Source: Terriglobia bacterium (GTDB lineage Bacteria; Acidobacteriota; Terriglobia; JAJPHL01; JAPKYU01). From it: a stretch of 64,000 nucleotides of DNA. How positions within the stretch are numbered: position 1 is the first letter of the stretch; each line of letters opens with the position of its first letter. The notes under the pieces are model-generated. The model ran no database searches. It was not told where the DNA came from and saw only the letters and a list, made by a program, of their open reading frames with translations. The stretch lies in the NCBI GenBank assembly GCA_965223005.1, contig CBDCVK010000005.1:128001-192000 (forward strand), given 5' to 3'. This document shows positions 14,681-36,896 of this stretch, piece by piece. The translations under genes and the position numbers were made by a program.

Positions 14681-14682
14681 CC

Positions 14683-18923: not shown

Positions 18924-19748
18924 GTGTTCCCACTTTCGGCATTCCTCTTCGGCCTGGTTATCGGCAGCTTCCTGAATGTGGTCATCCACCGCGTGCCGCG
19001 CGGGAAATCCGTTGTCGCTCCCCGCTCGCGGTGCCCGCACTGCGGCCACCAGATCGCCTGGTACGAGAACATTCCCCTGGCCAGCTACTTGGCGCTGCGA
19101 GGGCGTTGCAGCTCTTGCGGGGTGCCGATCTCTGTCCGGTACTTCATGGTGGAGTTGCTGACCGGAGCTATCTTTGCAATCCTGGCCGCCGTCTTCGGCT
19201 TCGGATTGCCGTTCCTCAAATACGCCCTGTTCGCCTCGCTGACCATTGCGCTGATGTTCATTGATCTTGCCGATCGCTTGCTCCCCGATGTCCTCACATT
19301 CCCGGGAATGGTGGCCGGGCTGGTTTTCAGCCTGCTGGTCCCGGTGGGCGACGGCAGCGCGGCGGCGCTGCTGCGAGTGGGTGGCTTGCGGCCGGACTCT
19401 TTGCAACTGCTGTCGCTGGCCGATGCCCTGTTGGGCGGCCTTGTCGGTGCGGGCGTACTCTGGTTTGTTGCGGAAGCCTACAAGCGGCTGCGGCATCGCG
19501 AGGGCCTGGGCTTTGGCGACGTGAAGCTAATGGCGCTGGTCGGCGCCTTCCTGGGGCCCGCACTGGCACTGCTGACCATCTTCCTGGGCTCGCTGCTCGG
19601 CACGGTGATTGGCGGCTCCTACATATTGCTCGGGGGGAAGGACAGCCAGTACGAATTGCCCTTCGGAACCTTTCTGGGTCTTACGGCGCTGGTCTCGGCG
19701 ATGTGGGGCAGGGAGATTGTGCATTGGTACCTGTTTCTCTCTTTCTAA
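18924..19748 (+). CDS. pilD: Prepilin peptidase (A24)
   Basis: GSFLNVVIHR, RSRCPHC, RGRCSSC, GFGDVKL, PFGTFL. Confidence 0.95.
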   Translation: MFPLSAFLFGLVIGSFLNVVIHRVPRGKSVVAPRSRCPHCGHQIAWYENIPLASYLALRGRCSSCGVPISVRYFMVELLTGAIFAILAAVFGFGLPFLKYALFASLTIALMFIDLADRLLPDVLTFPGMVAGLVFSLLVPVGDGSAAALLRVGGLRPDSLQLLSLADALLGGLVGAGVLWFVAEAYKRLRHREGLGFGDVKLMALVGAFLGPALALLTIFLGSLLGTVIGGSYILLGGKDSQYELPFGTFLGLTALVSAMWGREIVHWYLFLSF

Positions 19749-19793
19749 CTTGGCTGCCAGCGGTATTCCCCGACAGCCCCGGGGCGGGCGGCG

Positions 19794-21157
19794 ATGAGCC
19801 CCGGTCGCTACTCATCAATTTGCTGGCGTTGTCGGTGGTGGCGCTGGTTCTTCTGGTGGTAGCGATGCTGCTGGTACGCCGGGTTTTCAAGAAAGTTGAC
19901 GCCAAACCCAGCCTCGAACCGCAGTCGGGTACCGGCAGGACTGCGGACGATTCCGCCTTCGCTATGGCTGCCTTCCAGGGCGTCATCCAGCGTCTGCGCG
20001 AGCAGGAAAAGGAACTGGAGCGGTTGCACCACGCCGAGCGCCAGCGAGCCCAGCAGAGCGCTCAGCTCACCGCCGCCATCCTGCACAACCTGGCTACCGG
20101 AGTGCTGATGGTCAGCGCGCAGGAACTCATCACCGGGTCGAATCCGGCTGCGAAGGAGATGCTGGGACACCAGCTCCTGGAGGGGCGGAGTTTCCGCGAG
20201 GTCCTGGGACAGACCCGAGAGCTGTCCCACGCCACCTCGGCGCTGGCCGAGATGCTGGAAACCTGCCTGCACACAGGCCAGGGGTTCCATCGCATCACGG
20301 TGCCCTACCGCGCTCCCACGGGCGAAAACAAGGTTCTGGGGGTGGGCATGGCGCCGATTCAGCAGGAGAGCCGGGAGGGCGGTGTCATATGCCTGCTCAG
20401 CGACCTCACGGAGATGGCCGCCCTACAACAGCAGGTACGGCTGAAGGAAAGCCTGGCGGCGCTGGGCGAGATGTCGGCCGGGATCGCCCATGAATTCAAG
20501 AACTCGCTGGCCACAATTTCCGGCTACGGACAATTGATACGTCAGGAAGAGAGTCTGGAGACCGCACGCCAGCATGCGGCACGTCTGGTCGGCGAGACCC
20601 AGTTCCTCACTCAGGTCGTCAATGACTTTTTGAATTTCTCGCGCCTGCTGAACCTAGTCGCCTGCGACGTTTCTACGCGTGAGCTGATCGAGCGGAGCTT
20701 TCAGGAAATTGCCGGGCAAGGCGAGTTCCTTGGGGTGACGCTGGAGTTGGCCGGCGAGTTTCCTACCGTGACGGCCGACCAGACCCTACTGCGGCAGTGT
20801 TTTGCCAACCTGCTGCGCAACGGCTGCGAAGCGATTGCCCAGGGCGGCCGGCCCGGACGCATTGTTGTGGATGGCCAGTTGGAACGAACCGAGAGCAGTC
20901 CGATCCTCCGGCTGCGGTTCACCGACAATGGGCCGGGGATTCCCCCGGAGAACCTCGATAAAGTCTTTATTCCTTTCTTCACCACCAAGAACGAGGGAAC
21001 CGGTTTAGGGCTGGCGCTCGTCCATAAGATTGTGGTGAACCACAACGGGAAGATCCAGGTGGCAAGCGCGGCTGGCGGTGGGACCACCTTTACGGTGACG
21101 CTGCCGCTGGTGGCCACAGGCGCTCCGGCTCCATCAGGTGCAGGCGGTGGCACCTGA
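19794..21157 (+). CDS. PAS-containing sensor histidine kinase (PilS/NtrB-like); start uncertain
   Basis: AHEFKNSL H-box, NLLRN, DNGPGI, PFFTTK, GTGLGL; N-terminal TM. ATG at 19794 is one base out of frame at a C4 run. Confidence 0.85.
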
Positions 21158-21276: not shown

Positions 21277-21843
21277 ATGAACGGGCATCTCGGGCGAGTT
21301 TCCCAAATGCTGGTCCTGTTGGCAGCGCTGTTGCTGGCGGCGACTGCTTCGGCGCAGTCGCTCGGCGAGTTGGCACGCCGGGCACGGGTGAAAAAGGCCA
21401 GGCAGCCCAAGGCCACCCGCGTCTACACGAACGACACCCTGCCCGGGGGAGGTCGTATGAGCACCGCTGCGGTCACAACTGAGACGAAAGCCAAGCCTGG
21501 GGAAAAGGCAAAAGAAGACAAAACGGCGGAACCGGCAGAAGGCAAGAAGTCCCGGGCCGAACTAGAAAAGGAGTACCGCGAGAGGGCCGGCAAGCTGCGT
21601 GAGAACCTCACCCTCGAGGAGCGGAGACTGGAGGTGCTCAAGCGCGAATTTAACATGGCCAACGTGCAGTTTTACTCCGATCCTAACGCCGCGCTGCGCG
21701 AGCAAACTGCCCGCGCCGAACTCACAGCCCGCCAACAGGAGCTCGAACAGCAAAAGGCCGCCATTGCGGCCGCCCGGAAAGCCATCGCCGACCGCGAAGA
21801 GGAGTTGCGCCGAAAGGGACTACCGCCCGGTTGGGCCCGCTAA
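21277..21843 (+). CDS. Secreted coiled-coil hypothetical protein
   Basis: Signal peptide, SLGELARR..KV/RVYTND motif, charged helical C-terminus ending PGWAR. Confidence 0.75.
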   Translation: MNGHLGRVSQMLVLLAALLLAATASAQSLGELARRARVKKARQPKATRVYTNDTLPGGGRMSTAAVTTETKAKPGEKAKEDKTAEPAEGKKSRAELEKEYRERAGKLRENLTLEERRLEVLKREFNMANVQFYSDPNAALREQTARAELTARQQELEQQKAAIAAARKAIADREEELRRKGLPPGWAR

Positions 21844-21848
21844 TCGGG

Positions 21849-23234
21849 ATGGCCGAACCCCTCCTGCTGGTTGAGGACAAGGCCGAACTCCGCCAGATGC
21901 TGAAGCTGGCGCTGGAAAAAGCTGGGTTCCGCGTCGAGGATGCTGGCGACGGAACTCAGGCCTCTCACCTGCTCCATTCCCAACCCTTCTCCCTGCTGCT
22001 CACAGACCTGAAGCTGCCAGGCCGCTCCGGCCTGGAACTGCTTCGCCAGGCCCAGGAGATGGACCCCGGCATGCCGGTGGTGCTGCTAACCGCCTACGGC
22101 TCGATCGAGGAAGCCGTGCAGGCGATGAAGGGCGGAGCCTACGACTTCATCCAGAAGCCGGTGGACCTGGAACACCTAAAGCTGCTGCTGGAGCGCGCCC
22201 TGCTCCAGCGACAACTGGTGCGCGAGAACCTGCTGCTGAAGGAGGAAGCGGCAGTCCGGTATGGGTTTCCCCGTATCATCGCCGAGCATCCTTCGATGGT
22301 AGCAGTCGCCCGCGACGTGCAGCGCGTTGCTCCAACGGAAACCACTGTCTTGCTGTTGGGCGAAAGCGGCACCGGCAAAGAACTATTCGCCCGTGCCATC
22401 CACTCTCTGAGCTCCCGCAAAGACAGGCTGTTTGTAGCCCTGAACTGTGCCGCCATCCCTGAGGGACTGGTGGAGAACGAACTGTTCGGGCACGAAAAGG
22501 GTGCCTACACCGGAGCTGGGGCGCGCAAGATCGGCAAGTTCGAGTTGGCCCACCGCGGCACCATCTTCCTGGACGAGATCGGTGAGTTGCCGCTGGCGGT
22601 GCAGTCCAAGATTCTGCGAGTGTTGGAAGAGCGCGCCTTCGAGCGGGTGGGCGGCCTCCAGCGGATCGAGGTGGATGTGCGCATTCTGGTCGCCACCAAC
22701 CGCGACCTGCGCCAGGCGGTCGCGGAAAAGAGCTTCCGGGAAGATTTGTACTTCCGCATATCTACCGTTCCCATCACCATCCCGCCGTTGCGCGAGCGCG
22801 ACGCCGACATCTTGCTACTGGCCCGTGCTTTCCTGCACCACTACGCCGGCGAATTCCGAAAGGGTGGCCTGCGGCTTTCGCCGCAAGCTGAGAAGGCCCT
22901 ACTGGCCTACTACTGGCCTGGCAACGTCCGGGAATTGCAGAATAGCATCGAGCGCGCCGTCATCCTTTGCGACCGGGCCTCCGCCTGCATCCAGCCCGAA
23001 GACCTGGTTCTGCAGGCTCCGGCAGTTGCTCACTCCGAGCCGGAGCTGGGCCCCGAGCCGTTCAACTGGGTAGGACCGCTGGAGGAAGTCAGCCGGCGGG
23101 CCGTGACCCTGGTGGAAAAGGCCAAGATTCTGGGGGCCCTCAAGGAAGCGCGCTGGAATAAGATGAAAGCCGCCGAAAAACTGGGCATCGCGTACAAGAC
23201 TCTGCTGGCTAAGGCCCGCGCTTTGAACCTTTAG
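21849..23234 (+). CDS. Sigma54-dependent response regulator (PilR/NtrC family)
   Basis: REC domain, GESGTGKE, ELFGHEKGAYTGA, FLDEIG, WPGNVREL, C-terminal HTH. Confidence 0.93.
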   Translation: MAEPLLLVEDKAELRQMLKLALEKAGFRVEDAGDGTQASHLLHSQPFSLLLTDLKLPGRSGLELLRQAQEMDPGMPVVLLTAYGSIEEAVQAMKGGAYDFIQKPVDLEHLKLLLERALLQRQLVRENLLLKEEAAVRYGFPRIIAEHPSMVAVARDVQRVAPTETTVLLLGESGTGKELFARAIHSLSSRKDRLFVALNCAAIPEGLVENELFGHEKGAYTGAGARKIGKFELAHRGTIFLDEIGELPLAVQSKILRVLEERAFERVGGLQRIEVDVRILVATNRDLRQAVAEKSFREDLYFRISTVPITIPPLRERDADILLLARAFLHHYAGEFRKGGLRLSPQAEKALLAYYWPGNVRELQNSIERAVILCDRASACIQPEDLVLQAPAVAHSEPELGPEPFNWVGPLEEVSRRAVTLVEKAKILGALKEARWNKMKAAEKLGIAYKTLLAKARALNL

Positions 23235-23892: not shown

Positions 23893-24516
23893 TTACTGCT
23901 CAATGTAACCAAAGGCGACCAGACGGGCACGGATCTTTTCCGCCTCCTCCGGCCGGTCAGCAGGCGACCCGGGCGGTTCAATCAGCTGCAGTTGCTCCAG
24001 CTTGGCCAGAACGCGAGCGGCCGAGGCGGCCGGAGGTTCCCCGTCCGTCTCGAGCACCAATTCCGGATTGAGCGGCGCCTCGTAGGGATCATCAACTCCG
24101 GTGAAGTTCTTGATCTCGCCAGCGAGTGCTCGCTTGTACAGACCCTTAACATCGCGCTGGCTGCAAATTTCCACGGGAGCATTCACGTACATCTCCACAA
24201 AATTCTCAATGGTGGCACGAACTTTCTCGCGGGTGGCTCGGTAGGGGGAGATGGCGGCAGCGATGGCCGCCACACCATGCCTACTGAGGATCTGGCAGAG
24301 GAAACCGATGCGCAGGATGTTCGTGTCGCGATCCTCCTTGCTGAAGCCCAGGTTCTTGCACAAATGGGTGCGGACGACTTCGGCGTCCAGAACCTCGATG
24401 GCCCGCCCGCGGCGCATCAGTTCTTCGCCGACCAATTGCGCCAGCGTGGATTTACCTGAGCACGGCAGACCGGTGAACCACAGCGTAAACCCTTTGTTTC
24501 TCATGTTGGGATTCAT
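23893..24516 (-). CDS. cysC: Adenylyl-sulfate kinase with C-terminal extension
   Basis: WFTGLPCSGKST, LGFSKEDRDTN, RDVKGLY, FTGVDDPYEAP; ATGA overlap with sat. Confidence 0.95.
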   Translation of the reverse strand: MNPNMRNKGFTLWFTGLPCSGKSTLAQLVGEELMRRGRAIEVLDAEVVRTHLCKNLGFSKEDRDTNILRIGFLCQILSRHGVAAIAAAISPYRATREKVRATIENFVEMYVNAPVEICSQRDVKGLYKRALAGEIKNFTGVDDPYEAPLNPELVLETDGEPPAASAARVLAKLEQLQLIEPPGSPADRPEEAEKIRARLVAFGYIEQ

Positions 24517-25715
24517 CTGTTGGGATTGCCTGCCTCGCGGCAAGGGACTTGACTGCCGAGATCCTTCTGGCGGTAGGCCTCACGGAGGATTTCCCCCACT
24601 TCAGGCCGTGTGAACTCCACCGGCAGCTTCTGGCCGTCACGGAGCAGTTCGCGCACTTTGGTACCGCTCAGAATCAGCCGCTCCTGCGCCCCGTGCGGGC
24701 AGGTCTTCTCCGACGCGATTTGCCCGCACTTCTTGCAGTAAAAAGTGGCGCCGAAGAAAAGGGGCGTGATGTCCAGCTCGCCCGGCTCAAATTCAACAAA
24801 TTTCCTCTGTGCGTCATAGGGTCCGTAAAAATTGCCGACCCCGGCATGATCGCGACCAACGATGAAGTGTGTACAGCCATAGTTCTTACGGACCAGGGCA
24901 TGGAAGATCGCCTCGCGGGGACCCGCGTAGCGCATCGCCGCCGGATACAGGCTCAGGACGCAGTGCCGCGCTGGCAGCGCGTCACGCAGCAAGGCCAGGT
25001 AGCACTCCACGCGGACCTCAGCGGGCACGTCCTCTTCCTGAGTAGCGCCCACCAGAGGGTGGAGCAGCAGGCCATCGACGGTCTCCAGCGCGCATCTGAG
25101 TATGTACTCGTGAGCCCGGTGAATGGGATTGCGCGTTTGGAAGGCAACGATGGTGCGCCAGCGTCGGTAATCGAACAGGAACCGGGTTTCCTTCGGGTCC
25201 AGCGTGTATTTAGCGAAGGGTCCGCGGTCGGAGCGCTCTAGCAGACTGATGGGCCCGGCCAAGCAGTAGTCGCCGACACTGCGCAGGTAGCGGACGCCCG
25301 GGTGCTGGTCGCTGTCGGTCAGCAGCACGGCCTGCGCTTCGCGCTGCCGGTCATACTGGAACACCTCCTCGAGGTGGAGCACGGCGCGCAGGTGGCCCTG
25401 CGCGTCAGCCAGAGCCACCTCCTCGGGCCCCCCGAGTCGCTGGACCTCCTCTTTAGCGACTGCCAGGGTGACCGGGATGGTCCAGGGGAGGCCGCTGGTG
25501 AGCCGCTGCTGGGTCAGGACGCTTTCATAGTCACGCTGGCCCATAAAGCCCTCCAGCGGCGAGAAGGCGCCAATGGCGATCAGCTCTACGTCGGAGATCT
25601 GGCGCGAGTTCAACTGCAGGCGCGGCAGGCGTTCGGCCCGCTCGTGCCACTGCTGGCGCGCCTGATCTTCCAGCACGCGGTTGATTAGCCTGCCACCGTG
25701 AGGTCGGTTGGACAT
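24513..25715 (-). CDS. sat: Sulfate adenylyltransferase
   Basis: PHGG, FSPLEGFM, FQTRNPIHRAH, MRYAGPREA, GRDHAG; GGAGGA RBS. Confidence 0.96.
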   Translation of the reverse strand: MSNRPHGGRLINRVLEDQARQQWHERAERLPRLQLNSRQISDVELIAIGAFSPLEGFMGQRDYESVLTQQRLTSGLPWTIPVTLAVAKEEVQRLGGPEEVALADAQGHLRAVLHLEEVFQYDRQREAQAVLLTDSDQHPGVRYLRSVGDYCLAGPISLLERSDRGPFAKYTLDPKETRFLFDYRRWRTIVAFQTRNPIHRAHEYILRCALETVDGLLLHPLVGATQEEDVPAEVRVECYLALLRDALPARHCVLSLYPAAMRYAGPREAIFHALVRKNYGCTHFIVGRDHAGVGNFYGPYDAQRKFVEFEPGELDITPLFFGATFYCKKCGQIASEKTCPHGAQERLILSGTKVRELLRDGQKLPVEFTRPEVGEILREAYRQKDLGSQVPCREAGNPNR

Positions 25716-25985
25716 GATCCTCCAGGAATGGGACGCAACAGCGGAGCCTTGCAGCACTCAGACAGCCAAGGAGGAAAAGTCCTCACTGCCGCCCGTCTAG
25801 CACACCCCGGCCCTTCCAGCCTTCATACTGGGCGATCACCCCGTCAAAATCGACCGCAATCGTGCGCCGGGAATTTCTGCCTCTACTGGCCATTCGTCCC
25901 TTTGGAATCTAGTAACATACTCCAGCGGAAAGGGGAGCGTCAATTTGTTGCCTGACACCGGTCGCTGCCCGACGCCGGTCGAGCG

Positions 25986-27398
25986 ATGAGAATCTGCGTG
26001 CTGGGATTGGACTGCGCTGCCCCGGAAATCATCTTCGGGGACGAGCGGCTGCACAACATCCGACGGCTGATGCAGGCGGGTGTGTATGGGCGCCTGGAAA
26101 GCGTCATTCCACCCATCACGGTGCCGGCCTGGATGTGCATGGCAACGAGCCAGGATCCAGGGTCGCTCGGCGTCTACGGTTTCCGCAACCGGACCGACCA
26201 CTCCTACAGCCGGCTCAGCATTGCCAATTCCACTTCTATCCAGCAGGCGGCCATCTGGGATCACTTGGCGCGTCAGGGGAAGCGGTCCATCCTGGTGGGC
26301 GTACCACCAAACTACCCGCCCCGGCGCGTCCACGGCCTCAGCATCGGCTGCTTCCTGACGCCCGACCCGACCAGGGACCCCTTCACCTACCCGGCCAGCC
26401 TCCAGGCACAGATCCGTAAGCGGGTGGGGGAATACCCGGTGGACGTCAAGGGCTTCCGCACCGCGGACAAGCAGTGGCTGAAACAAGAAATTTTCCAGAT
26501 GAGTCAGAAGCAATGGCAGGTGGTGCGCTGGCTGCTCGCAGAGCAGGAGTGGGACTATTTTCACTTCGTGGATATCGGTCTGGACCGCGTGCACCATGGC
26601 TTCTGGCAATATTTTGACTCACAACACCGGCATTACGAAGCAGGAAACCCATATGAGAGTGTCATTCCGGAATACTATCGTTGGATTGACGAACAACTCG
26701 GCGCCGTCGTCGAGCTGCTGGATCGCGAGACAATTCTGCTGGTGGTGTCGGACCACGGAGCCCAGCGGTTGGACGGTGGCTTTGCGATCAACGAGTGGCT
26801 GATCCGCAAGGGGCTGCTGGTGGTAGAGGAGTTTCCCAACGCGGTCACGCCCTTCGAGAAGCTGAAGGTGAACTGGGCGAAAACCAAAGCGTGGAGCGAG
26901 GGCGGCTACTACGCCCGCGTGTTCTTCAACGTAAAGGGGCGCGAGCCGCAGGGTGTGGTTCCGCCGTCCGACTATGAGGCCCTGCAGGACGAGATGAAGG
27001 CCGAATTCGAGGCGCTTACCGACGACCGGGAACGGCCACTGAACTCGGTGGTTTTCAAACCACAGGAAATTTACCGGCATGTGCGGAACGTCGCGCCGGA
27101 CCTCATCGTGCACTTGGGTGGCCTGTATTGGCGCTCGATCGGTAGCGTGGGCTACGGGCGGGTGCACGTGGCGGAGAACGATACGGGTCCGGACGCCTGC
27201 AACCACTCCCAGTTCGGCATGTTCCTACTTGTGGCTCCCAACTGTCCGCCGAGCGGCCCCTACGGAGGCGCCGGCCTGCTGGATATCGCCCCGACGCTGC
27301 TGGATCTGGCCGGCTACGAAATCCCAGGGACTGTCCAGGGGCGCTCGCTGGTCAAAGGAATGGTCAGCAAGCAGGCGGACCTCGCCGGTCAGGGATGA
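25986..27398 (+). CDS. Alkaline-phosphatase superfamily (phosphodiesterase/NPP-like) protein, cytoplasmic
   Basis: LGLDC, PPITVPAW (Thr nucleophile), DRVHH, SDHG, DIAPT; no signal peptide. Confidence 0.88.
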   Translation: MRICVLGLDCAAPEIIFGDERLHNIRRLMQAGVYGRLESVIPPITVPAWMCMATSQDPGSLGVYGFRNRTDHSYSRLSIANSTSIQQAAIWDHLARQGKRSILVGVPPNYPPRRVHGLSIGCFLTPDPTRDPFTYPASLQAQIRKRVGEYPVDVKGFRTADKQWLKQEIFQMSQKQWQVVRWLLAEQEWDYFHFVDIGLDRVHHGFWQYFDSQHRHYEAGNPYESVIPEYYRWIDEQLGAVVELLDRETILLVVSDHGAQRLDGGFAINEWLIRKGLLVVEEFPNAVTPFEKLKVNWAKTKAWSEGGYYARVFFNVKGREPQGVVPPSDYEALQDEMKAEFEALTDDRERPLNSVVFKPQEIYRHVRNVAPDLIVHLGGLYWRSIGSVGYGRVHVAENDTGPDACNHSQFGMFLLVAPNCPPSGPYGGAGLLDIAPTLLDLAGYEIPGTVQGRSLVKGMVSKQADLAGQG

Positions 27399-27444
27399 TG
27401 GCAATACCAATGAACGCAAGCGAGAAACCTGGTAGACCAGCAAA

Positions 27445-29466
27445 ATGACAAGGGGCAGGCTTACAGGCGTTTCACGGGAGGCCAAGATGCTGGCGCTGGT
27501 CCTGGTGCTCTCCGCTGCCCTGGGAACCGCAGCCTGCTGGCTTGCCCCCCGGGGAAACGGCGTGCCCTCCAAGCAGGTGATCGTACTCGGACTCGATGGG
27601 ATGGACCCGGAACTTCTTCAGCGCTATATGCAGGAAGGCAAGCTGCCCAATTTTGCCAAGTTGGCCGCGAGCGGCAGCTTCCGCCGGCTGGGCACCAGCA
27701 CTCCGCCGCAAAGTCCGGTGGCCTGGTCCAACCTGATCACCGGCACCAATCCGGGCGTGCACGGCATCTTTGACTTCATCCACCGCGACCCGGACACTTT
27801 GGTTCCTTACTTTTCAACCTCTCGGGTGGAACCTCCCAAGTACACCCTGCGCTTAGGCCAGTGGGTGGTTCCCATTTCCGGCGGCCGGGTTAACCTTCTC
27901 CGGCAAGGGAAACCCTTTTGGGAAATCCTGGACGACCACGGGATTCCCGCAACCGTCCTCCGGATGCCCGCCAACTTCCCCCCAGTGGAGTCGAACGCAC
28001 GAACGTTCGCTGGCATGGGGACCCCCGATCTTTTGGGGACTTACGGGACATTCTTCTTCTTCACCGACGACCCGCTTATCGAGGCCGGCCCGGTGAGCGG
28101 AGGGCGGATCTACTCGGTGAACGTAGAGGGCGGGCGTGTGGACGCAAGGCTGGAAGGCCCGCGCAACCCGTTTCGCCAGGGTGAACCTCCCGCGACAGCG
28201 GATTTCGCTGTTTGGCTCGACCCGCAGGAACCGGCGGTAAAAATTGCGATTCAAGATCAGGAGATTCTTCTCAAGGAAGGGGAATGGAGCGATTGGGTGC
28301 CGCTGTCGTTCGAGCTGATCCCCTATCTGGAGAGCGTAGCGGGCATTTGCAAGTTTTACCTGAAGCAGGTGCGTCCGCAGTTTCAGCTCTATGTCACCCC
28401 CATCAATCTCGATCCTTCGAGGCCGGCTTTGCCTTTGTCTACCCCCAAGCGCTACGCGCGTCAGCTTTCGAAGCAAGTCGGTTACTTCTATACCCAAGGG
28501 ATCGCCGAGGACACCAAAGCCCTCTCCAGCGGTATCTGGACCGATAAGGAATACGTGCAGCAGGCACGCATGGTGCTGGACGAGCGCCTAAGAATTTTTG
28601 ATATCGAACTCGGCCGCTTTCGTAACGGACTGTTTTTCTTCTATTTCTCCACCTTGGATCAGAATGCGCATATGCTCTGGCGGGCCATGGACGAGCGCCA
28701 TCCCGCTTACGAAACGCAACTGGCAGCCGATTTCGGTGGCGTCCTAGAAGACTTGTATCAGGAAATGGATCGGGTTGTGGGCAAAGTATTGGCGAAACTG
28801 GATCGGCACGCCACCCTGTTGGTAGTGTCGGATCACGGCTTCGCGCCCTATTATCGTTCCCTCAATCTAAACGCCTGGTTGCTGGAAAACGGCTACCTGG
28901 CACTGGAGCCGGGAACGGAACGCGGCGAAAGCGAATTCCTACGCGATGTGGATTGGTCCAGGACGCGCGCCTATGGGCTGGGGCTAAACGCCCTGTATCT
29001 GAACCTGGAGGGCCGGGAGCGTTACGGCATTGTGCCGCCGGGAACACAAGCCCAGGCGCTGCGGGCGGAGATCGCAGCCCGCCTGGAGGAGCTGCGCGAT
29101 CCGCTCACCGAGTCGCCTGTGGTGGCCCGGGCCCACCAGGCGACTGAGGTGTATTCAGGTCCGAAAGTCCGCGACGCGCCGGACCTGCTCATTGGCTATG
29201 CGCGCGGCTACCGGGTCGGCTGGGCTTCTGTGCTGGGAGGAGTTTCCCGGGTGACGTTGGAAGACAATACCGAGCCGTGGAGTGGCGACCATTGCGTGGA
29301 GCCTGCGTTGGTGCCGGGAGTCCTGCTGAGCAACAAAAAGATCGCGGCCGAATCACCCGAGCTGAGAGACGTGGCTCCCACGATCCTGGCCGAATTTCAG
29401 GTCGCCAAACCAGATAACATGGAAGGCAGGTCGTTGTTCGGGGCCCAATCAATGGGTTCACGCTAG
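27445..29466 (+). CDS. Alkaline-phosphatase superfamily protein with N-terminal signal/anchor
   Basis: GLDGMDPEL, PPQSPVAWS, DQNAHM, SDHGF, WSGDHC, DVAPT. Confidence 0.88.
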   Translation: MTRGRLTGVSREAKMLALVLVLSAALGTAACWLAPRGNGVPSKQVIVLGLDGMDPELLQRYMQEGKLPNFAKLAASGSFRRLGTSTPPQSPVAWSNLITGTNPGVHGIFDFIHRDPDTLVPYFSTSRVEPPKYTLRLGQWVVPISGGRVNLLRQGKPFWEILDDHGIPATVLRMPANFPPVESNARTFAGMGTPDLLGTYGTFFFFTDDPLIEAGPVSGGRIYSVNVEGGRVDARLEGPRNPFRQGEPPATADFAVWLDPQEPAVKIAIQDQEILLKEGEWSDWVPLSFELIPYLESVAGICKFYLKQVRPQFQLYVTPINLDPSRPALPLSTPKRYARQLSKQVGYFYTQGIAEDTKALSSGIWTDKEYVQQARMVLDERLRIFDIELGRFRNGLFFFYFSTLDQNAHMLWRAMDERHPAYETQLAADFGGVLEDLYQEMDRVVGKVLAKLDRHATLLVVSDHGFAPYYRSLNLNAWLLENGYLALEPGTERGESEFLRDVDWSRTRAYGLGLNALYLNLEGRERYGIVPPGTQAQALRAEIAARLEELRDPLTESPVVARAHQATEVYSGPKVRDAPDLLIGYARGYRVGWASVLGGVSRVTLEDNTEPWSGDHCVEPALVPGVLLSNKKIAAESPELRDVAPTILAEFQVAKPDNMEGRSLFGAQSMGSR

Positions 29467-29490
29467 GCTGCCCCGCCGAGGAGGCACAGC

Positions 29491-29697
29491 ATGTTCGGTC
29501 CGCGCATCAAGATTGATGACGAGTTGTTTGATAAGGTGAAGACCTGCGCCGAAAAGGCCGGCTACGCCTCGGCGGAGGAGTTCGTCACCCACCTGCTGGA
29601 AAAAGAGGTCGCCCGCCTCCTTGGTTCGGAGGAAGAAGGCCGCGATCCTGAGGAAGAAGTGAAAAAGCGGCTGCAAGGCCTGGGCTATATCGAGTGA
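29491..29697 (+). CDS. Small RHH/CopG-like protein with C-terminal RLxxLGY motif
   Basis: Strong RBS (gaggagg); beta-helix-helix pattern IKIDDELFDKV..AGYASAEEFV..LL; ends EEEVKKRLQGLGYIE. Confidence 0.8.
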   Translation: MFGPRIKIDDELFDKVKTCAEKAGYASAEEFVTHLLEKEVARLLGSEEEGRDPEEEVKKRLQGLGYIE

Positions 29698-29751
29698 AGA
29701 GTTGTTGGCCGGCAACACGCCGGAAGAGGAACGCGGTTCAAGGCGCCCCCG

Positions 29752-30570
29752 ATGCCGTTTTTTCTGTCCCTTGTGAATGGCCTCTTTGATCTTCTGTTTT
29801 GGCCCTTCCGGACGCTGGACCCGCGCTACGGTTTGGCAGCCTTTTCCTTGTTGACTGGCGCCTTTCTGGTGTTGGTATTCCGGCACGCCTCCAACCAGCA
29901 GGCCATACGGCAGGTGAAAGACCGGCTGCAAGCGCAAGTGCTGGCGGTCCGGCTGTATCAGGACCAGTTGGGAGCGGTGCTGCGGTCTTACGGACGCATC
30001 CTGCGTTGCACGCTCACCTACCTGCGGTATTGCCTGAAGCCCCTGGCAGTGATGCTGGTGCCGATGGTGTTACTGCTGGCGCAGGTTGAGCTGCGCCTGG
30101 GCCGGGCTGCCCTCCAGCCACGCGACACGTTTCTACTCCAAGCCCGTCTGGACGGGGGCGTTTCGGCGGACCAGGTGGCGCTTCGCCTGCCCGATGGATT
30201 GGCGCTCTCCGCCCCGCCGGTGCGAATTCCGGAGCAGAAGGAAATCAGCTGGCGGATTCGAGCCGAAACTTACGGGAACTTTCCGATCGAGGTGATGGCT
30301 GCAGGCCAGAGCTTCACAAAACAGGTGACGGTCGCGCCTGATCTGGCCCGGCTCTCCTCCGCACGTCTCCAGAGCAACTTGCTCCAGGCGCTGCTACATC
30401 CCGGGGAACTCCCCTTGCCTGCCGATGGCCCGTTGGAAGCAATTCAGGTGAGGTACCCGCCGCGCAGCATCGAGCTGGGACCGTACCGGGGACACTGGCT
30501 GATTCCGTTTTTTGTTCTTGTAATGGTCTGGACGCTAGCGGCGAAGGCCGTGACCAGAACTCAGTTCTAA
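29752..30570 (+). CDS. Membrane protein resembling DUF106/EMC3/TMCO1 (Oxa1 superfamily) with a soluble insert
   Basis: Amphipathic N-helix, TM1, coiled-coil (NQQAIRQVKDRLQ), KPLAVMLVP TM2, beta-rich insert, C-terminal W-containing TM. Confidence 0.6.
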   Translation: MPFFLSLVNGLFDLLFWPFRTLDPRYGLAAFSLLTGAFLVLVFRHASNQQAIRQVKDRLQAQVLAVRLYQDQLGAVLRSYGRILRCTLTYLRYCLKPLAVMLVPMVLLLAQVELRLGRAALQPRDTFLLQARLDGGVSADQVALRLPDGLALSAPPVRIPEQKEISWRIRAETYGNFPIEVMAAGQSFTKQVTVAPDLARLSSARLQSNLLQALLHPGELPLPADGPLEAIQVRYPPRSIELGPYRGHWLIPFFVLVMVWTLAAKAVTRTQF

Positions 30571-30580
30571 CGCCCTTCCC

Positions 30581-32704
30581 ATGATTTCGAGGCACCCGAA
30601 GACCTCACGCGCCCGACGCCTGCTGGCAGGCACGCTTGCTGCCCTGTTGCTATGGCCCGGGGTAGCTTGGGGGTACGTTGGCCCCGGGGCTGGCTTCGCG
30701 GTCCTGTCATCGTTTTTGACCCTCTTCTTGGCGTTTCTGTATTCCCTATTCGCTCTGTTGAGCTGGCCGCTGAGACAGCTTCGCCGACTGCTGCGCCGCC
30801 GCAAAGTTCTTCGCAAAGCCCGCGTGCGACGGGTGGTCATCCTGGGCCTAGATGGCATGGACCCCGAGCTAGCCACAAGGTACATGCAGGAGGGCAAGTT
30901 GCCTCATCTGGCAGCGCTACGCGATCGAGGCACCTTTCTCCCTTTGCAGACTACTTGCCCGCCGATTTCTCCGGTAGCCTGGTCCTCGTTTCAAACCGGC
31001 GTCAATCCCGGCAAGCACAACATCTACGACTTCCTGGCCAGAGATTGCGCCACCTATCTTCCCTACCTCTCCTCGGTCGAGATTCGGGGGCCGCGCCGGA
31101 GCCTTGCGCTGGGCAAGTACGCGATTCCGCTGGGCCGCTCTCGTAGCAGGCTGTTGCGCAAGGCCAAGTCCTTCTGGCACTACCTGGCTGAGGCAGACAT
31201 TTTCTGCTCCGTGATTCGCGTACCGATCACTTTTCCCGCCGAAAAATTCTCCGGCGTGTTGCTGGCGAGCATGTGCGTCCCGGACCTGAAGGGTAGCCAG
31301 GGAACCTTTTCTTTCTACACGACGCGCGACGGCCCTGCAGAAGGCCCACAGGGCGGCCTGCGCTTCCGGTTGCAGCCGGAGGGCGGCGGGTTCCGCTCCT
31401 ACATCCCTGGCCCGGAGAATCATTTGTTGAAGACGCAGCATAGCGAACTGCGCATCCCGTTCCGTGTGCGTGCAGATGCTGCCCGGAGCGAGGCGGAAAT
31501 CGAGATCCAGAGACAGCGCATCACCTTGCGCAAGGGGAAGTATTCCGAATGGGTCGAGTTGAAGTTCAAGGCCGGTCTGGGCATCAAGGTGCACGGCATT
31601 TGCCGCTTCTACTTGAAGGAACTCGAGCCACACCTGGAGCTCTACGTCACTCCCATCAACATCCATCCCGGAAAGCCTGCGCTACCGATCTCACACCCGT
31701 TCACCTACTCGATCTATCTATCCAAGCTCCTGGGGCCCTACGCCACGCTGGGGCTGGCTGAAGATACCTGGGCACTGAACGAAGGCGTGCTCGACGAGGA
31801 GGCCTTTCTCCGGCAGTGCTACCTGATTCACGAAGAGCGGGAACGCATGTTCTTCGACGCGCTGGAGAAGACGCCGCGCGGTCTTTGCGTCTGCGTGTTT
31901 GATATTACCGACCGGGTGCAGCATATGTTCTGGCGCTATCTGGACAGCGGCCATCCGGCCGACGGCAATGCCGGCGCGGCGAATCCGTTCAGGGGCGTCA
32001 TCGAGGAACTCTATCGCCGGATGGACGATCTGGTCGGTCGCACACTCCAGCAGATGGATGAGGAGTCCATTTTGTTGGTGATTTCTGACCACGGGTTCAA
32101 GTCCTTCGAGCGCGGCATCAACATCAACACTTGGCTTTGGCGAAACGGCTTTCTCGCGTTGCAGGACGGTGCACGGCCCGGCGCCGAGTGGCTTCGCAAC
32201 GTGGACTGGCAGCAGACCCGCGCCTACGCACTTGGACTCAGCGGCGTTTACATCAACCAAAAGGGGCGTGAGCGTGGCGGCATCGTCGCTGCGGGCCGAG
32301 AAACTGAGGAACTCAAGCGGGAATTATGTGAAAAGCTCGGCGGGCTGGTGGATCCTCAAACCGGCCGAGTGGCCATCCGCGAGGTGTTTGACAGTAGCAA
32401 TGTCTTTACCGGCCCCTATCGGGACAATGCGCCGGACCTGATCATCGGCTACAACGAGGGCTATCGCGCCGCCTGGGACTCTGTGACGGGCACGATCGGC
32501 AGTGAAGTGTTCCAGGACAACTGCAAGGCCTGGAGTGGCGACCACTGCATAGACCCGAGGCTGGTCCCCGGCGTGCTGTTCTCGGACAAAAAGATTCACT
32601 GCGAACGGCCCTCGCTGCTGGACATTGCGCCCACCGCGCTGGACCTGTTCGGCGTGCCGCTGCCGCCGCACTTCGAAGGCAAACCCTGGAGCATCGGTGA
32701 GTGA
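30581..32704 (+). CDS. Alkaline-phosphatase superfamily protein with signal peptide plus YVGPGAG-TM anchor
   Basis: Paralog of 27445: GLDGMDPEL, PPISPVAWS, DRVQHM, SDHGF, WSGDHC. Confidence 0.88.
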   Translation: MISRHPKTSRARRLLAGTLAALLLWPGVAWGYVGPGAGFAVLSSFLTLFLAFLYSLFALLSWPLRQLRRLLRRRKVLRKARVRRVVILGLDGMDPELATRYMQEGKLPHLAALRDRGTFLPLQTTCPPISPVAWSSFQTGVNPGKHNIYDFLARDCATYLPYLSSVEIRGPRRSLALGKYAIPLGRSRSRLLRKAKSFWHYLAEADIFCSVIRVPITFPAEKFSGVLLASMCVPDLKGSQGTFSFYTTRDGPAEGPQGGLRFRLQPEGGGFRSYIPGPENHLLKTQHSELRIPFRVRADAARSEAEIEIQRQRITLRKGKYSEWVELKFKAGLGIKVHGICRFYLKELEPHLELYVTPINIHPGKPALPISHPFTYSIYLSKLLGPYATLGLAEDTWALNEGVLDEEAFLRQCYLIHEERERMFFDALEKTPRGLCVCVFDITDRVQHMFWRYLDSGHPADGNAGAANPFRGVIEELYRRMDDLVGRTLQQMDEESILLVISDHGFKSFERGININTWLWRNGFLALQDGARPGAEWLRNVDWQQTRAYALGLSGVYINQKGRERGGIVAAGRETEELKRELCEKLGGLVDPQTGRVAIREVFDSSNVFTGPYRDNAPDLIIGYNEGYRAAWDSVTGTIGSEVFQDNCKAWSGDHCIDPRLVPGVLFSDKKIHCERPSLLDIAPTALDLFGVPLPPHFEGKPWSIGE

Positions 32705-33775: not shown

Positions 33776-33816
33776 GCCCGGACACAGAGGTATAATTGGG
33801 TAGAGGTGAACAGGGG

Positions 33817-34917
33817 ATGCCCACCCTGGCTGAAGTCCTGGCCCAGCACGTGCAAGAAGGCGTTTTATGGGAGCCACTGGAGCGCAACCGCATCCGCTGC
33901 TATGCCTGCGGCCACCAGTGTCCCATTCCGGAGGGGCAGCCGGGAGTATGCAAGGTGCGGTTCAACCGGGGCGGCCGACTGTACGTCCCCTGGGGCTACG
34001 TGGGCGGCATCCAGTGCGACCCCATCGAGAAGAAGCCGTTCTTCCACGTGCGGCCAGGCGCGCTGGCGTTCAGCTTCGGCATGCTGGGCTGCGACCTGCA
34101 CTGCTCTTACTGCCAGAACTGGGTGACTTCCCAGGCCATCCGCGACCCCGGTGCGGTAGCGCCGCCTGAGTTGACCAGCCCGCCCCAATTGGTGAAGCTT
34201 GCCCGCGAGATGGGAGGCGACGCGGTGGTCAGCACTTACAACGAGCCGCTGATCACCGCCGAGTGGGCTGTGGCCGTCTTCCAGGAGGCGCGCGCAGCCG
34301 GCCTGCTCACCGGCTTTGTCTCCAACGGCAACGCTACCCCGCAGGTATTGGAATACATCCGCCCCAGCGTGGATCTTTACAAGGTGGATCTGAAGAGCTT
34401 CGATGACCGCCACTATCGCCAACTGGGCGGGCGGCTGCAGCCCATCTTGGAGAGTATTCGGCTCATCCACCAGATGGGCTTCTGGCTGGAGATCGTCACC
34501 CTGGTCATTCCCGGCTTCAATGACTCCGATGAGGAGCTTACCAGGATGGCCGAGTTTCTAGCTGACATCTCGCCCGACATTCCCTGGCACGTCACTGCTT
34601 TCCACAAGGATTACAAGATGCTGGACCCGGACGACACGCCGCCACAGACGCTGGTTCGGGCCGCCCAGATCGGCAAGCGTGCCGGGCTGCGCTACGTCTA
34701 CGCCGGCAATCTGCCCGGGAGGGTGGGCAACCTGGAGAACACCTATTGCCCGGCATGCGGCGACTTGCTGGTGGAGCGTTACGGCTACCGCATCCGCGAC
34801 TACAGGCTGACCCGGGAGGGCCGCTGCCCCACTTGCTCTGCCGCTGTCCCGGGCCGCTGGGCCGAGTCCTTCCACCGACAGATCGCTGACCGCCCCTTCC
34901 TTCCGATTCTTCAGTAG
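33817..34917 (+). CDS. amrS: AmmeMemoRadiSam system radical SAM enzyme
   Basis: N-terminal CYACGHQC..GVCKVR, DPIEKKP, GCDLHCSYCQN (CxxxCxxC), TYNEP, YVYAGN; TATAAT at 33791. Confidence 0.9.
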   Translation: MPTLAEVLAQHVQEGVLWEPLERNRIRCYACGHQCPIPEGQPGVCKVRFNRGGRLYVPWGYVGGIQCDPIEKKPFFHVRPGALAFSFGMLGCDLHCSYCQNWVTSQAIRDPGAVAPPELTSPPQLVKLAREMGGDAVVSTYNEPLITAEWAVAVFQEARAAGLLTGFVSNGNATPQVLEYIRPSVDLYKVDLKSFDDRHYRQLGGRLQPILESIRLIHQMGFWLEIVTLVIPGFNDSDEELTRMAEFLADISPDIPWHVTAFHKDYKMLDPDDTPPQTLVRAAQIGKRAGLRYVYAGNLPGRVGNLENTYCPACGDLLVERYGYRIRDYRLTREGRCPTCSAAVPGRWAESFHRQIADRPFLPILQ

Positions 34918-35076: not shown

Positions 35077-36357
35077 CTATTGGTGAAGCTCGGCGCTGAG
35101 AGCCTGGGGGCCGCGCGCCTGGTAGAACCGCAACAGGCGAATCATCTCCGAGGAAGGAGGCAGCACGCTTCCCAGTCCGGCATCTTCCAAGGCAGACCGC
35201 TCGGGAACCCAGATCCTTCCATCGCTAAGTTGCACCGCGCGCAAATACACACGGCCTGAAAGGAGAGGCTCAGAGGCGTCCGAGCCAGTCTCCAGCACTG
35301 CCGAATCACTCCACCCGAAGGACTCACCCGGCGGCAAGACGAGGACGCGACTTGCCGACGCTCTGCCGGAGCCAGAAATGGTGGCAGCACGAGACTCCCG
35401 TCCCGAAGCGCCTTCGAACAGCCAGGCAACTTGGAAGTCGACAATCCCGGTTCCAGCGCGGTTGCGCACCTCCAGTGCGGGGTCAACCAAGCCGGATTTC
35501 GGGCCAGATTCATAGACGCTCGCTCGCGCCCACACAATCTCCAGCGGTGCGTCGGGAAAGCGCACGACGCGGAAATTGGCCTTCTGGGCCAGCTTGCGGG
35601 CGCGCACAGCTGCAGCTCCGGCCAACACCCGGGGAGTCCCCTGTGCCGAACTGGGTCCAGGCCCGGCCGCTTGGCTGGCCCATTTCTCGAGCATCCGAAT
35701 CAGGTGGGAAAATCCCGCCCTCTGAAACACGCCCTGCAGATAGCGGCGGTCGCGGGCAGACTCGGCCTGGTTAATCCGCATGGTACCGAGCACCCGCATC
35801 CGGTCGGGACCGTAGGCGGACCCATCGGCAAACAGCACGGAATCCAGCTGCATGCGCACCGAGGTGGGGAGGTCCACAGGACGCGCCCGCGAGGTGCGGG
35901 GAGGCAGTTCGATTTCCACGCGCATCCGTGCCGGCACGGCGTAGGTTTCGCCGGGCGCTAAGCGAATCCCGGATACGGCGTTCAGCCCTCCCGTGCCGGG
36001 CGTGCTGAAACCGTAGCTCAGGGCCAGCGCCAGCCCTTCGATAGGTTTAGGCGAGCGGTTGCGCACCGTCAGCCGCAAGTCCAAGTCCATCAGCATGCCC
36101 TGCTCGCCGCGAGTGATGCGGCTGGAGCCGTAGTCGAGGTGAACCAATTCCAGCGGCCCAGACGTTGGGAGAACTACCCGCACGAAGCGGCGAGGGTCAA
36201 TGTCGGCCGGCCTGAGCGACGGGTGCGTGAACGGCGAGCGCGTGGTCTGGCCTGGTTGCGCCAGCAGCGCGGCCGGGGCTGCCAGCAGCAGCACTAGCAG
36301 GGAGCCCGCGAAGCGGGCCCATCGAAACCGGCAACAGGAGCGGCAACGGGTGCTCAC
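35077..36357 (-). CDS. Secreted hypothetical protein with two related beta-domains
   Basis: Signal peptide; repeated PLE(L/I)V...VRN...V(L/Q)(F/L)xDG units; coupled to the anti-sigma gene. Confidence 0.7.
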   Translation of the reverse strand: MSTRCRSCCRFRWARFAGSLLVLLLAAPAALLAQPGQTTRSPFTHPSLRPADIDPRRFVRVVLPTSGPLELVHLDYGSSRITRGEQGMLMDLDLRLTVRNRSPKPIEGLALALSYGFSTPGTGGLNAVSGIRLAPGETYAVPARMRVEIELPPRTSRARPVDLPTSVRMQLDSVLFADGSAYGPDRMRVLGTMRINQAESARDRRYLQGVFQRAGFSHLIRMLEKWASQAAGPGPSSAQGTPRVLAGAAAVRARKLAQKANFRVVRFPDAPLEIVWARASVYESGPKSGLVDPALEVRNRAGTGIVDFQVAWLFEGASGRESRAATISGSGRASASRVLVLPPGESFGWSDSAVLETGSDASEPLLSGRVYLRAVQLSDGRIWVPERSALEDAGLGSVLPPSSEMIRLLRFYQARGPQALSAELHQ

Positions 36358-36896
36358 CTTGCGCCCTCCAGTGAAACTCGGGTAATGGTTAGCGCGCCGG
36401 TGTCCGGGTCGGCGTAGGAAATGCCGAGGACTCCCGCGCCAGCCGACACTTCCACCGGCCCGCGGCGCATCCCGGTATAGAGCACCACGCGCTGGCGCCC
36501 CTGCGGACCGCTCAACTCGCCCACGATCGCCTCAGCGCTGGCGGAAGCCTGGTAGTCGAAGCGGGGAGGCAGCGGCGTCCGTTGTCCGATGAGCAACACC
36601 GCCAGGCAAATCAGCGCCAGCAAAGCCGCGGCCGGCGCCAACGGTTGTGGTATTCCAAAAACCTGGCGCGGCGCGTGCGTCGGGCCGGCCACAATTCTGG
36701 CCGCCAGCCACTCGGGCGTTTCCGGGATGCCCTGGCCGAGTCGCCGTAGCTCGCGGGAAACTTCTCCGTAGCCCTGGGCCTGCTCGGAACAAGCAGCGCA
36801 CCGCTGAAGGTGACGCTCTACCAGGTAGCGCTTCCAGCCCGGCAGATCGCCGGCATTCACCAGGGCAAGATCAAATTCAGAAGGATGCCAGATCAC
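36354..36896 (-). CDS. Zinc-finger (HxxxCxxC) anti-sigma factor
   Basis: HLQRCAAC motif plus a TM helix; GTG start overlapping the sigma stop, AAGGAG RBS. Confidence 0.8.
   Translation of the reverse strand: MIWHPSEFDLALVNAGDLPGWKRYLVERHLQRCAACSEQAQGYGEVSRELRRLGQGIPETPEWLAARIVAGPTHAPRQVFGIPQPLAPAAALLALICLAVLLIGQRTPLPPRFDYQASASAEAIVGELSGPQGRQRVVLYTGMRRGPVEVSAGAGVLGISYADPDTGALTITRVSLEGAR

Follow-up and report, generated by a model that had tools for sequence, protein, structure and literature searches.

Which protein uses 3'-phosphoadenosine 5'-phosphosulfate (PAPS) where its synthesis is encoded beside a set of alkaline phosphatase (AlkP) superfamily enzymes? The question is raised by a locus in a 64,000-nucleotide stretch of the Terriglobia bacterium contig CBDCVK010000005.1 (phylum Acidobacteriota), the whole of which we call the window. 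Here sat and cysC, whose products can make PAPS, are divergent from five tightly packed genes for AlkP1, AlkP2, a 68-amino-acid (aa) protein, a membrane protein and AlkP3 (spacings of 46, 24, 54, and 10 bp). All seven genes lie where an initial annotation, made from the sequence alone, had placed them (Table 1). That annotation had also proposed that the AlkP-fold proteins may take the place of a classical sulfotransferase or act as relay components; to our knowledge, PAPS-dependent sulfation is thought to require P-loop sulfotransferases. From a comparison with 401 sampled genomes of the phylum, we suggest that the locus may be one version of a conserved Acidobacteriota PAPS-driven envelope module in which AlkP1 would be the PAPS-using step, a reading to which we give a little less than an even chance.

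Gene order couples AlkP1 to the APS kinase gene

AlkP1 (AlkP1a) is a cytoplasmic enzyme of nucleotide pyrophosphatase/phosphodiesterase (NPP) type in which we found no signal or anchor. Homologues are abundant and conserved to an unusual degree: the best 120 of more than 5,000 matches are 72-89% identical, and relatives occur in at least 504 stretches of a species-genome collection, the 80 loci retained being mostly from Terriglobia with some from Binatia. The window genome's closest named relative in that collection is a Terriglobia metagenome-assembled genome (L075), with an AlkP1 that is 97% identical. Of the 80 loci, 52 are full length, and sat and/or cysC lies inside the locus in 23.

At the level of whole genomes, an AlkP1 orthologue (E ≤1e-100) is present in 52 of the 401 phylum genomes, and all 52 carry cysC, the gene for adenosine 5'-phosphosulfate (APS) kinase. 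We took the distance between the two genes in 40 of the 52, those with cysC among 150 listed places. In 36 of the 40, cysC is on the same contig no more than 3 kb from AlkP1; in 30, the distance is at most 600 bp. A further 20 AlkP1 loci, picked for family spread, have cysC adjoining AlkP1 in 16 cases and the order sat, AlkP1, cysC in 7. Judged by gene order, AlkP1 is tightly operon-coupled to cysC across many families. Terriglobia have an arrangement of their own, in which the gene preceding AlkP1 encodes a soluble AlkP of ~616 aa related to AlkP2 and AlkP3, and AlkP1 stands beside another AlkP and a sulfatase-like gene, not within the sat operon.

Several genes were identified directly after sat-AlkP1-cysC. 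One locus has a PHP protein whose nearest match is 3',5'-nucleoside bisphosphate phosphatase (1.6e-61, short of the curated cut-off) together with a UDP-GlcNAc 2-epimerase (L163:10634-12678); others have an NAD-dependent sugar epimerase (L161:7769-8734) or two UDP-glucose/GDP-mannose dehydrogenases (L172:10170-13745). These downstream genes are a hint of a glycan acceptor. CysQ-like genes were likewise recovered in 6 of 41 loci of the four-gene cassette described below, by clustering of neighboring open reading frames (ORFs) together with Pfam. Because CysQ or PHP phosphatases adjoin AlkP1, AlkP1 itself is unlikely to be the phosphatase of 3'-phosphoadenosine 5'-phosphate (PAP). We also considered selenocysteine in AlkP1, as four orthologues have two TGA codons in the match, and rejected it: the alignment puts these stops past the true C-terminus.

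Genome context ties a four-gene cassette to PAPS synthesis

The membrane protein encoded between the 68-aa protein and AlkP3 has 80 homologues at E ≤0.001 in a collection of 5.8 billion proteins, among which the only useful names are three "DUF106" labels from the Joint Genome Institute (JGI). Used as a marker, a profile of 18 of these homologues found the cassette in 120 of the 401 sampled genomes and in 78 of 228 genera (all phylum tallies include one unpublished genome, G049). We then took 40 cassette loci of 20 kb each, picked for long contigs and family spread before their neighbors were inspected. The order AlkP3, AlkP2, small protein, membrane protein is kept in 34 of the 40, and five loci are partial; the small protein was found in 37 loci and AlkP2 in 38. 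The gene order of the window recurs in a single locus, L057, from the same class. From this survey we take the conserved unit to be these four genes, with AlkP1 as an accessory and the window order as a local rearrangement. Cytoplasmic AlkP proteins include a second subfamily, AlkP1b (~430 aa, with a basic N-terminus and PEISAVSW around the nucleophile), which lies by 10 of the 40 cassettes and in L155-L159, L164, and L171, where it often follows AlkP1-cysC or precedes AlkP3.

Three observations connect the cassette with PAPS. First, sat and/or cysC lies within 10 kb of the cassette in 10 of the 40 loci, in divergent, co-directional, and convergent layouts. Second, an APS kinase is encoded by 114 of the 120 cassette genomes as against 132 of the 281 genomes without a cassette, and four of the six cassette genomes that lack it are less than 82% complete. 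Third, a P-loop sulfotransferase of ~205 aa (PF13469, 6.1e-10; PF00685, 2.9e-5) recurs beside the cassette, being inside the locus in 23 of 40 cases, elsewhere in the genome in 8, and not found at E ≤1e-25 in 9. This protein keeps SGLPRSGTS and an Arg-x7-Ser pair, which we take to be the 5'-phosphosulfate- and 3'-phosphate-binding motifs, and 81 of the 97 genomes with a sulfotransferase of this type also have the cassette. These associations link the widespread cassette both to the synthesis of PAPS and to a sulfotransferase that depends on it.

Might the adjacency of sat-cysC and the AlkP genes be accidental and without functional meaning? The 30 of 40 cassette loci with no sat or cysC within 10 kb could be read in that way. 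However, 20 kb taken at random from genomes of 2-8 Mb would be expected to include these genes in well under one of 40 loci, and accident would account neither for the APS kinase gene in all but six of the cassette genomes nor for the closeness of AlkP1 to cysC. We find an accident barely credible. The initial annotation had named a lack of conserved linkage with sat and cysC as grounds for refuting its proposal; the linkage is conserved, both for the cassette and for AlkP1, and on this test the proposal is not refuted.

Comparative genomics sets AlkP1 against the cassette sulfotransferase

In the genome that contains the window (G000; 3.24 Mb, 10 contigs, 96% complete), the cassette sulfotransferase was not found by tblastn with all cluster members, by a hidden Markov model of 19 members, or by profile A3. 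No PF13469 or PF00685 match was detected in a scan whose positive controls matched, nor was there any match to PF03567, PF09037, PF17784, or PF19798, for which controls were absent or only below cut-off. The initial annotation was right that the window has no P-loop sulfotransferase, and none was detected elsewhere in the 96% complete genome either. It had also noted the lack of cysH and cysIJ; this, too, holds for the window, the genome's cysH being on contig C2 and its sulfite reductase on C8. The encoded CysH has the pattern CC...CTYC...ECGLH, of the form CC...CxxC...ECGLH that marks iron-sulfur APS reductases. With a CysH of this type, assimilation should not need PAPS.

Across the 120 cassette genomes, the sulfotransferase is present in 81 and AlkP1 in 17; none has both, and 22 have neither. 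One gives way to the other even inside single families (f73, f84, and f91), as it does between the window and G048, a genome of its class. By these tallies, AlkP1 and the cassette sulfotransferase are mutually exclusive in cassette genomes. We tested five further genomes that have AlkP1 plus the cassette. Four of them (G287, G382, G247, and G207; 94-96% complete), in which AlkP1 adjoins cysC, gave no PF13469 or PF00685 match and no match to PF01507 (CysH), a family whose control matched in 14 of 14 genomes and in G000. These four genomes therefore have no recognizable PAPS consumer except the AlkP proteins.

Two other candidates for this pattern were tried and rejected. AlkP1b is never found together with the sulfotransferase within a locus, yet 5 of 10 genomes with AlkP1b encode the sulfotransferase elsewhere. 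A split as opposed to a fused sat/cysC does not underlie the pattern either, as there are genomes with the sulfotransferase and a stand-alone cysC that lack AlkP1.

Weighing AlkP1 as the PAPS-using step

We suggest that AlkP1, cytoplasmic and with a Thr nucleophile, might carry out the PAPS step in the role of the P-loop enzyme, either as a non-canonical sulfotransferase or as a kindred PAPS-processing enzyme. Twelve AlkP1 sequences share D9, T45 (in PPITVPAW), D196/D200, H203/H204, D256-H257, and H407, to which we assign the roles of nucleophile and two-metal ligands by analogy with NPP, as we do for AlkP3 below. Single-sequence searches of the PDB with AlkP1 and AlkP3 gave no match. The AlkP1 profile gave weak local matches to choline sulfatase (7.8e-4), then to arylsulfatases and cofactor-independent phosphoglycerate mutase, and an Atlas search returned generic PF01663 clusters only.

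Several points weigh against a PAPS-using AlkP1. In terms of chemistry, AlkP1 keeps what we take to be the full NPP catalytic residue set. NPP enzymes normally attack phosphorus, and with APS or PAPS they would release sulfate, not transfer it. The AlkP1 structure model is too poor (predicted local distance difference test, pLDDT, 57) to back the proposed role with active-site geometry. In terms of distribution, most cassettes pair with an ordinary P-loop sulfotransferase, and the AlkP fold need not carry sulfate. The Fisher test on the split between AlkP1 and the sulfotransferase (3e-10) is naive and overstated, as kin genomes are not independent. Both genes occur together in three cassette-free genomes (G179, G221, and G291). 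All four tested genomes (G058, G187, G324, and G156) of the 22 with neither gene at our thresholds show weak sulfotransferase-like matches, and the fifth of the further AlkP1-plus-cassette genomes, G046, has AlkP1 together with a different PF13469 protein. As for G000, three of the six Pfam sulfotransferase families were searched without a positive control, and a sulfotransferase could sit in the missing part of this 96% complete genome.

AlkP1 could instead assist PAPS synthesis and not be a sulfotransferase: as a pyrophosphatase or nucleotide pyrophosphatase, it would draw the unfavorable ATP sulfurylase reaction forward or trim the APS/PAPS pools. AlkP2 and AlkP3 would then be phosphodiesterases or phosphotransferases acting on membrane or envelope phospho-compounds, and the enzyme that transfers sulfate would have gone unrecognized. 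Such a helper would suit the 7 of 20 loci in which sat and cysC flank AlkP1, and also the membership of AlkP1 in PF01663, a nucleotide pyrophosphatase family, with nucleophile and metal ligands conserved. PAPS synthase-pyrophosphatase fusions occur in some eukaryotes. On the other hand, five genomes (G010, G045, G165, G136, and G031) have the sulfotransferase and a stand-alone cysC (~200-260 aa) without AlkP1, so a split sat/cysC needs no AlkP1. A helper role also leaves unexplained the exclusion between AlkP1 and the sulfotransferase in cassette genomes, the C-terminal tail that AlkP1 shares with the small protein (see below), and the PAPS consumer in the four genomes without CysH and the two commonest sulfotransferase families. 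Nor does it sit well with Terriglobia, where AlkP1 keeps company with another AlkP and a sulfatase-like gene outside the sat operon. We consider a helper unlikely, though with an appreciable chance of being right.

The same loci could belong to a sulfur-scavenging regulon, in which AlkP and neighboring sulfatase-like proteins hydrolyze sulfate esters or compounds akin to them, sat activates the sulfate set free for assimilation, and cysC and cysQ serve as assimilation genes. Membrane proteins with a sulfatase domain (PF00884, 1.4e-43) flank 11 of 41 cassette loci and also many AlkP1 loci; L036 has a PAPS_reduct gene and sulfite reductase across the cassette, L086 has Cys/Met pyridoxal phosphate (PLP) enzymes nearby, and the weak PDB profile matches of AlkP1 and AlkP3 include sulfatases. 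But AlkP1 is more tightly partnered with cysC than with sat, while the CysH of the window genome, being of APS type, needs no PAPS and four AlkP1 genomes have no CysH family match at all. A PAPS-dependent sulfotransferase is a regular member of the cassette. In addition, the cytoplasm is an odd site for scavenging hydrolases such as AlkP1 and the AlkP3 catalytic domain would be, and the nucleophiles are Ser/Thr, not the Cys/Ser-x-Pro-x-Arg of type I sulfatases. Scavenging is, in our estimate, improbable.

AlkP2 and AlkP3 are predicted to lie on opposite sides of the membrane

The N-termini of AlkP2 orthologues carry lipobox or twin-arginine (RRDF) signals, that of the window copy being lipoprotein-like (…LGTAAC), and on these signals AlkP2 is taken to be exported. 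The N-termini of 38 AlkP3 orthologues comprise a signal peptide, an AY(V/I)GPGAGFA motif, one transmembrane (TM) helix, and a basic run, followed by the catalytic GLDG. By the positive-inside rule, the AlkP3 catalytic domain would face the cytoplasm on a procoat-like hairpin. D91, S130, D444, H448, D503-H504, and D654-H655 are invariant in 20 AlkP3 sequences, and both AlkP2 and AlkP3 have an insert of ~240 residues. Against the PDB, the AlkP3 profile gave weak local matches to an S1_8A sulfatase over a C-terminal stretch (1.9e-6), to ENPP1 over the center (1.4e-4), and to PhnA and a bacterial NPP at the N-terminus.

Since most relatives encode a P-loop sulfotransferase by the cassette, AlkP2 and AlkP3 need not be sulfotransferases. 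The idea that AlkP-fold proteins replace the classical enzyme is thus kept, on comparative genomics, for AlkP1 alone; for AlkP2 and AlkP3, the 23 of 40 loci with a P-loop sulfotransferase beside the cassette count against it. In the module that we favor, with AlkP1 at the PAPS step, AlkP2 would work on the periplasmic side, and the whole would hand a group that bears sulfate, or depends on it, to an acceptor in the membrane or envelope.

A DUF106/Ylp1-like protein is a candidate insertase for AlkP3

The membrane protein had been called Oxa1-like in the initial annotation, and the profile of 18 homologues (A1) bears this out: it matches PDB 5c8j (MJ0480, Ylp1) with E 1.1e-8 over residues 5-120, the last TM helix being matched weakly. 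The window protein itself matches no Pfam family at E ≤0.01, PF01956 included, and we therefore class it at the superfamily level only; a precomputed PF01956 match exists for 1 of the 80 homologues. The structure model (pLDDT 89) has helices at residues 24-46, 49-68, 73-116, and 250-268. They make up TM1, a two-helix cytoplasmic coiled coil, TM2, and, after an inserted periplasmic immunoglobulin (Ig)-like beta domain (approximately residues 120-247), TM3. A VIA-align comparison with 48,161 chains ranked 7tut_8, from a multipass translocon, first (Z 11.7, root-mean-square deviation 3.3, 134 residues aligned), the next having Z 8.5; this chain is presumably TMCO1. Foldseek against the PDB returned only Ig-like matches for the beta domain, all at E >0.001.

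The features of the model agree with the DUF106/Ylp1 feature list in PMC5868721. There, DUF106 is described as an archaeal and eukaryotic family, and its substrates as simple proteins of which only small parts are translocated. The AlkP3 hairpin is in keeping with such a substrate. By analogy, the DUF106/Ylp1-like protein probably inserts or holds AlkP3, which would then be kept on the cytoplasmic side of the membrane by a hairpin such as Oxa1-type insertases handle.

The GLGY tail is predicted to dock over the AlkP3 active site

The 68-aa protein consists of a possible ribbon-helix-helix (RHH) N-terminal half, an acidic linker, and a C-terminal tail, and is ~54% identical across the phylum, with G63, L64, G65, and Y66 invariant in 18 sequences. 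No other of the window genome's 37,365 ORFs (50 aa or longer) ends in GLGY. The same ending, an acidic stretch plus RLxGLGY(I/V), closes many AlkP1 orthologues. We compared 101 AlkP1 genes whose ends are complete: where the locus has no separate small protein, 58 of 90 carry the tail, and where it has one, 0 of 11 do. In the window, AlkP1 ends (27370-27398) in ...KQADLAGQG where most Terriglobia orthologues have ...HDRLAGLGYV; from the alignment, this resembles a tail that has decayed, and the lineage is one in which the small protein exists separately. A second small protein (78 aa), ending in ...RKRLKGLGYL, adjoins the sulfotransferase in another locus (L038:16165-16398, minus strand).

Because AlkP1 and the small protein have this tail in common, we modeled the small protein in complex with AlkP3 (residues 80-707) from alignments. 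The model scored 0.71, the best of three controls 0.00. Of 80 solved complexes, 58 score at least this high, as do 2 of 110 mismatched pairs; these counts are only rough, as our own alignments were used. Runs share at least 92% of contacts, and the pLDDT of the partner is at least 78. The predicted interface brings residues 21-34 and 57-68 (the tail) of the small protein against AlkP3 residues that include 129, 448, 651, and 656, beside S130, H448, and D654-H655. The model supports binding between the 68-aa protein and AlkP3 and predicts that the GLGY tail docks over the AlkP3 active site, where it might act as a carrier, a substrate mimic, or a regulator.

The label "RHH" given to this protein by the initial annotation is weakly supported. 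Of 18 homologues, PF01402 finds 8 (best E 0.0021) and PF07704 finds 9 (best 0.004); the window copy has no RHH match in Pfam/NCBIfam scans. NikR N-terminal domains also match the family weakly (E 0.15-0.22). These RHH and NikR-type matches, with the predicted tail position, suit a protein that is mainly a transcription factor or an inhibitor, in which an RHH repressor plugs the AlkP3 site with its tail so that enzyme occupancy controls the operon, and which carries no group. However, the tail is fused to AlkP1 in 58 loci without an RHH domain, so DNA binding cannot be its core role, and the unmatched window copy does not help the case. We judge such a main role rather unlikely.

Returning to AlkP1 as the PAPS step, one can extend it into a relay. 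AlkP1, or the P-loop sulfotransferase in most relatives, would move the PAPS sulfuryl group onto the GLGY tyrosine; the tail, now a sulfotyrosine and thus an aryl sulfate donor, would enter the active site of AlkP3, where Ser130 would receive the group for onward transfer to a carrier or acceptor in the membrane; and exported AlkP2, perhaps with the DUF106 groove, would deliver it on the periplasmic side, beyond the reach of PAPS. The tail tyrosine that this calls for is on the 68-aa protein in the window and is fused to AlkP1 in most Terriglobia. We hold the full relay to be distinctly unlikely. If true, no earlier PAPS-dependent sulfotransferase would have had an AlkP fold, and sulfation outside the cytoplasm would gain its first sulfate donor carried on a protein or a membrane.

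Features and surroundings of the locus

The genome has a single sat and a single cysC. Scans of the divergent sat/AlkP1 gap for sigma-70 promoters and terminators, and a search for a sigma-54 pattern, found nothing above shuffled sequences.

Table 1. Features of the locus and its surroundings, with positions in the window
Feature	Position	Strand	Matches and remarks
PAS histidine kinase	19703-21157	+	upstream of cysC
Sigma-54-dependent response regulator	21831-23234	+	upstream of cysC
cysC, APS kinase (APS to PAPS)	23893-24543	-	PF01583, E 2.1e-59; NF002059, 253.8 bits (cut-off 244)
sat, ATP sulfurylase (sulfate adenylyltransferase), N-terminal PUA-like domain	24513-25757	-	PF01747, 1.3e-92; PF14306 (PUA_2), 4.3e-53; NF003166, 529.4 bits (cut-off 387)
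sat/AlkP1 divergent intergenic region, 228 bp	25758-25985		shared control region presumed
AlkP1 (AlkP1a), cytoplasmic NPP-type AlkP-superfamily enzyme	25986-27398	+	PF01663, 2.7e-41, 142.7 bits (cut-off 23)
AlkP2, predicted exported (periplasmic) AlkP-superfamily enzyme	27445-29466	+	PF01663, 3.8e-34, 119.2 bits (cut-off 23)
68-aa cytoplasmic protein, possible RHH N-half, acidic linker, RLxGLGY(I/V) tail	29491-29697	+	no Pfam/NCBIfam match
272-aa membrane protein, DUF106/Ylp1 branch of the Oxa1 superfamily	29752-30570	+	no Pfam/NCBIfam match
AlkP3, membrane-held AlkP-superfamily enzyme	30581-32704	+	PF01663, 8.5e-28, 98.4 bits (cut-off 23)
AmmeMemoRadiSam-system radical SAM enzyme	33796-34917	+	TIGR04337, 1.2e-90
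Type IV pilin-like genes (two)	~43587 and ~44376	-	prepilin motif ...GFSLIELLIVVAIILIIAAIAIPNLL
ORFs of 190-560 aa	32987-33775, 35077-37004, 12938-19496		several without Pfam or NCBIfam match

Regulators similar to the kinase and response regulator upstream of cysC occur near the cassette in L059 and L070. A gene 69-71% identical to that of the radical S-adenosylmethionine (SAM) enzyme lies 3-6 kb downstream of AlkP1 in L084 and L143, and its recurrence near AlkP1 in these loci and the window is probably plain synteny. The glycosylated pili that the initial annotation had offered as sulfation targets are represented nearby by the two pilin-like genes, ~11 kb from the cassette; nothing ties the pilins to the cassette.

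Implications

In a whole clade of soil bacteria, a single operon joins sat and cysC to the gene for an AlkP-fold enzyme. If AlkP1 does use PAPS, it would represent a new enzyme class for sulfation, and this would bear on the annotation of the COG3379-type "alkaline phosphatase family proteins" that are abundant in soil metagenomes and to which its many homologues belong. The cassette also offers a bacterial DUF106/Ylp1 homologue a likely client in the AlkP3 hairpin. Even on an ordinary reading, it would be an undescribed and widespread Acidobacteriota envelope module. At the level of abstracts, we found no paper that describes this system or that links COG3379/AlkP-family proteins to PAPS, sat, or cysC.

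Comparison with known enzymes and systems

Bacterial clusters for PAPS-dependent sulfation include NodPQ-NodH of rhizobia, CysDNC-Stf0 of mycobacteria, and RaxPQ-RaxST. The present system resembles them in joining sulfate activation genes to a PAPS-using enzyme and a PAP phosphatase, and most cassette relatives carry a small P-loop sulfotransferase. Unlike them, the window genome has no detected P-loop sulfotransferase, and the partners are AlkP-fold enzymes, a DUF106-type protein, and a tailed mini-protein; among the abstracts searched, no described sulfation cluster was found with partners of these kinds.

Within the AlkP superfamily, the three window enzymes pass the Pfam cut-off of the NPP branch (PF01663; Xanthomonas NPP, ENPP1, and PhnA) and keep its Ser/Thr nucleophile and Asp/His ligands. 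They differ from that branch in C-terminal parts that are closer to sulfatases, in the cytoplasmic placement of AlkP1 and, as predicted, of the AlkP3 catalytic domain, and in the operon linkage of AlkP1 to sat and cysC. Type I sulfatases are set apart by the Cys/Ser-x-Pro-x-Arg formylglycine motif, which is absent from the window enzymes (nucleophile contexts PPITVPAW, PPQSPVAW, and PPISPVAW), and by PF00884, on which AlkP1 reaches 21.5 bits, under the cut-off of 25. By sequence comparison, the window AlkP family sits between the NPP and sulfatase branches. The AlkP superfamily catalyzes sulfuryl transfer through a covalent enzyme intermediate, with aryl sulfates, such as sulfated tyrosine, as workable donors. 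The PAPS-independent arylsulfate sulfotransferases (ASSTs) have a fold that differs from AlkP.

For the membrane protein, the relatives are Ylp1 (MJ0480), EMC3, TMCO1, Get1, and YidC. It resembles them in its homology to MJ0480 and in the layout of TM1, coiled coil, TM2, and TM3; it differs in being bacterial, in its inserted Ig-like periplasmic domain, and in being operon-locked with specific enzymes. LtaS, EptA/MCR, and OpgB, finally, belong to the Sulfatase Pfam family and have five-helix anchors and periplasmic domains, whereas AlkP3 has a single procoat-like hairpin and is predicted to face the cytoplasm. What they would share with AlkP2 and AlkP3 is a membrane-tethered AlkP fold whose Ser/Thr nucleophile passes a head group to an envelope acceptor, and this is our working model for the two enzymes.

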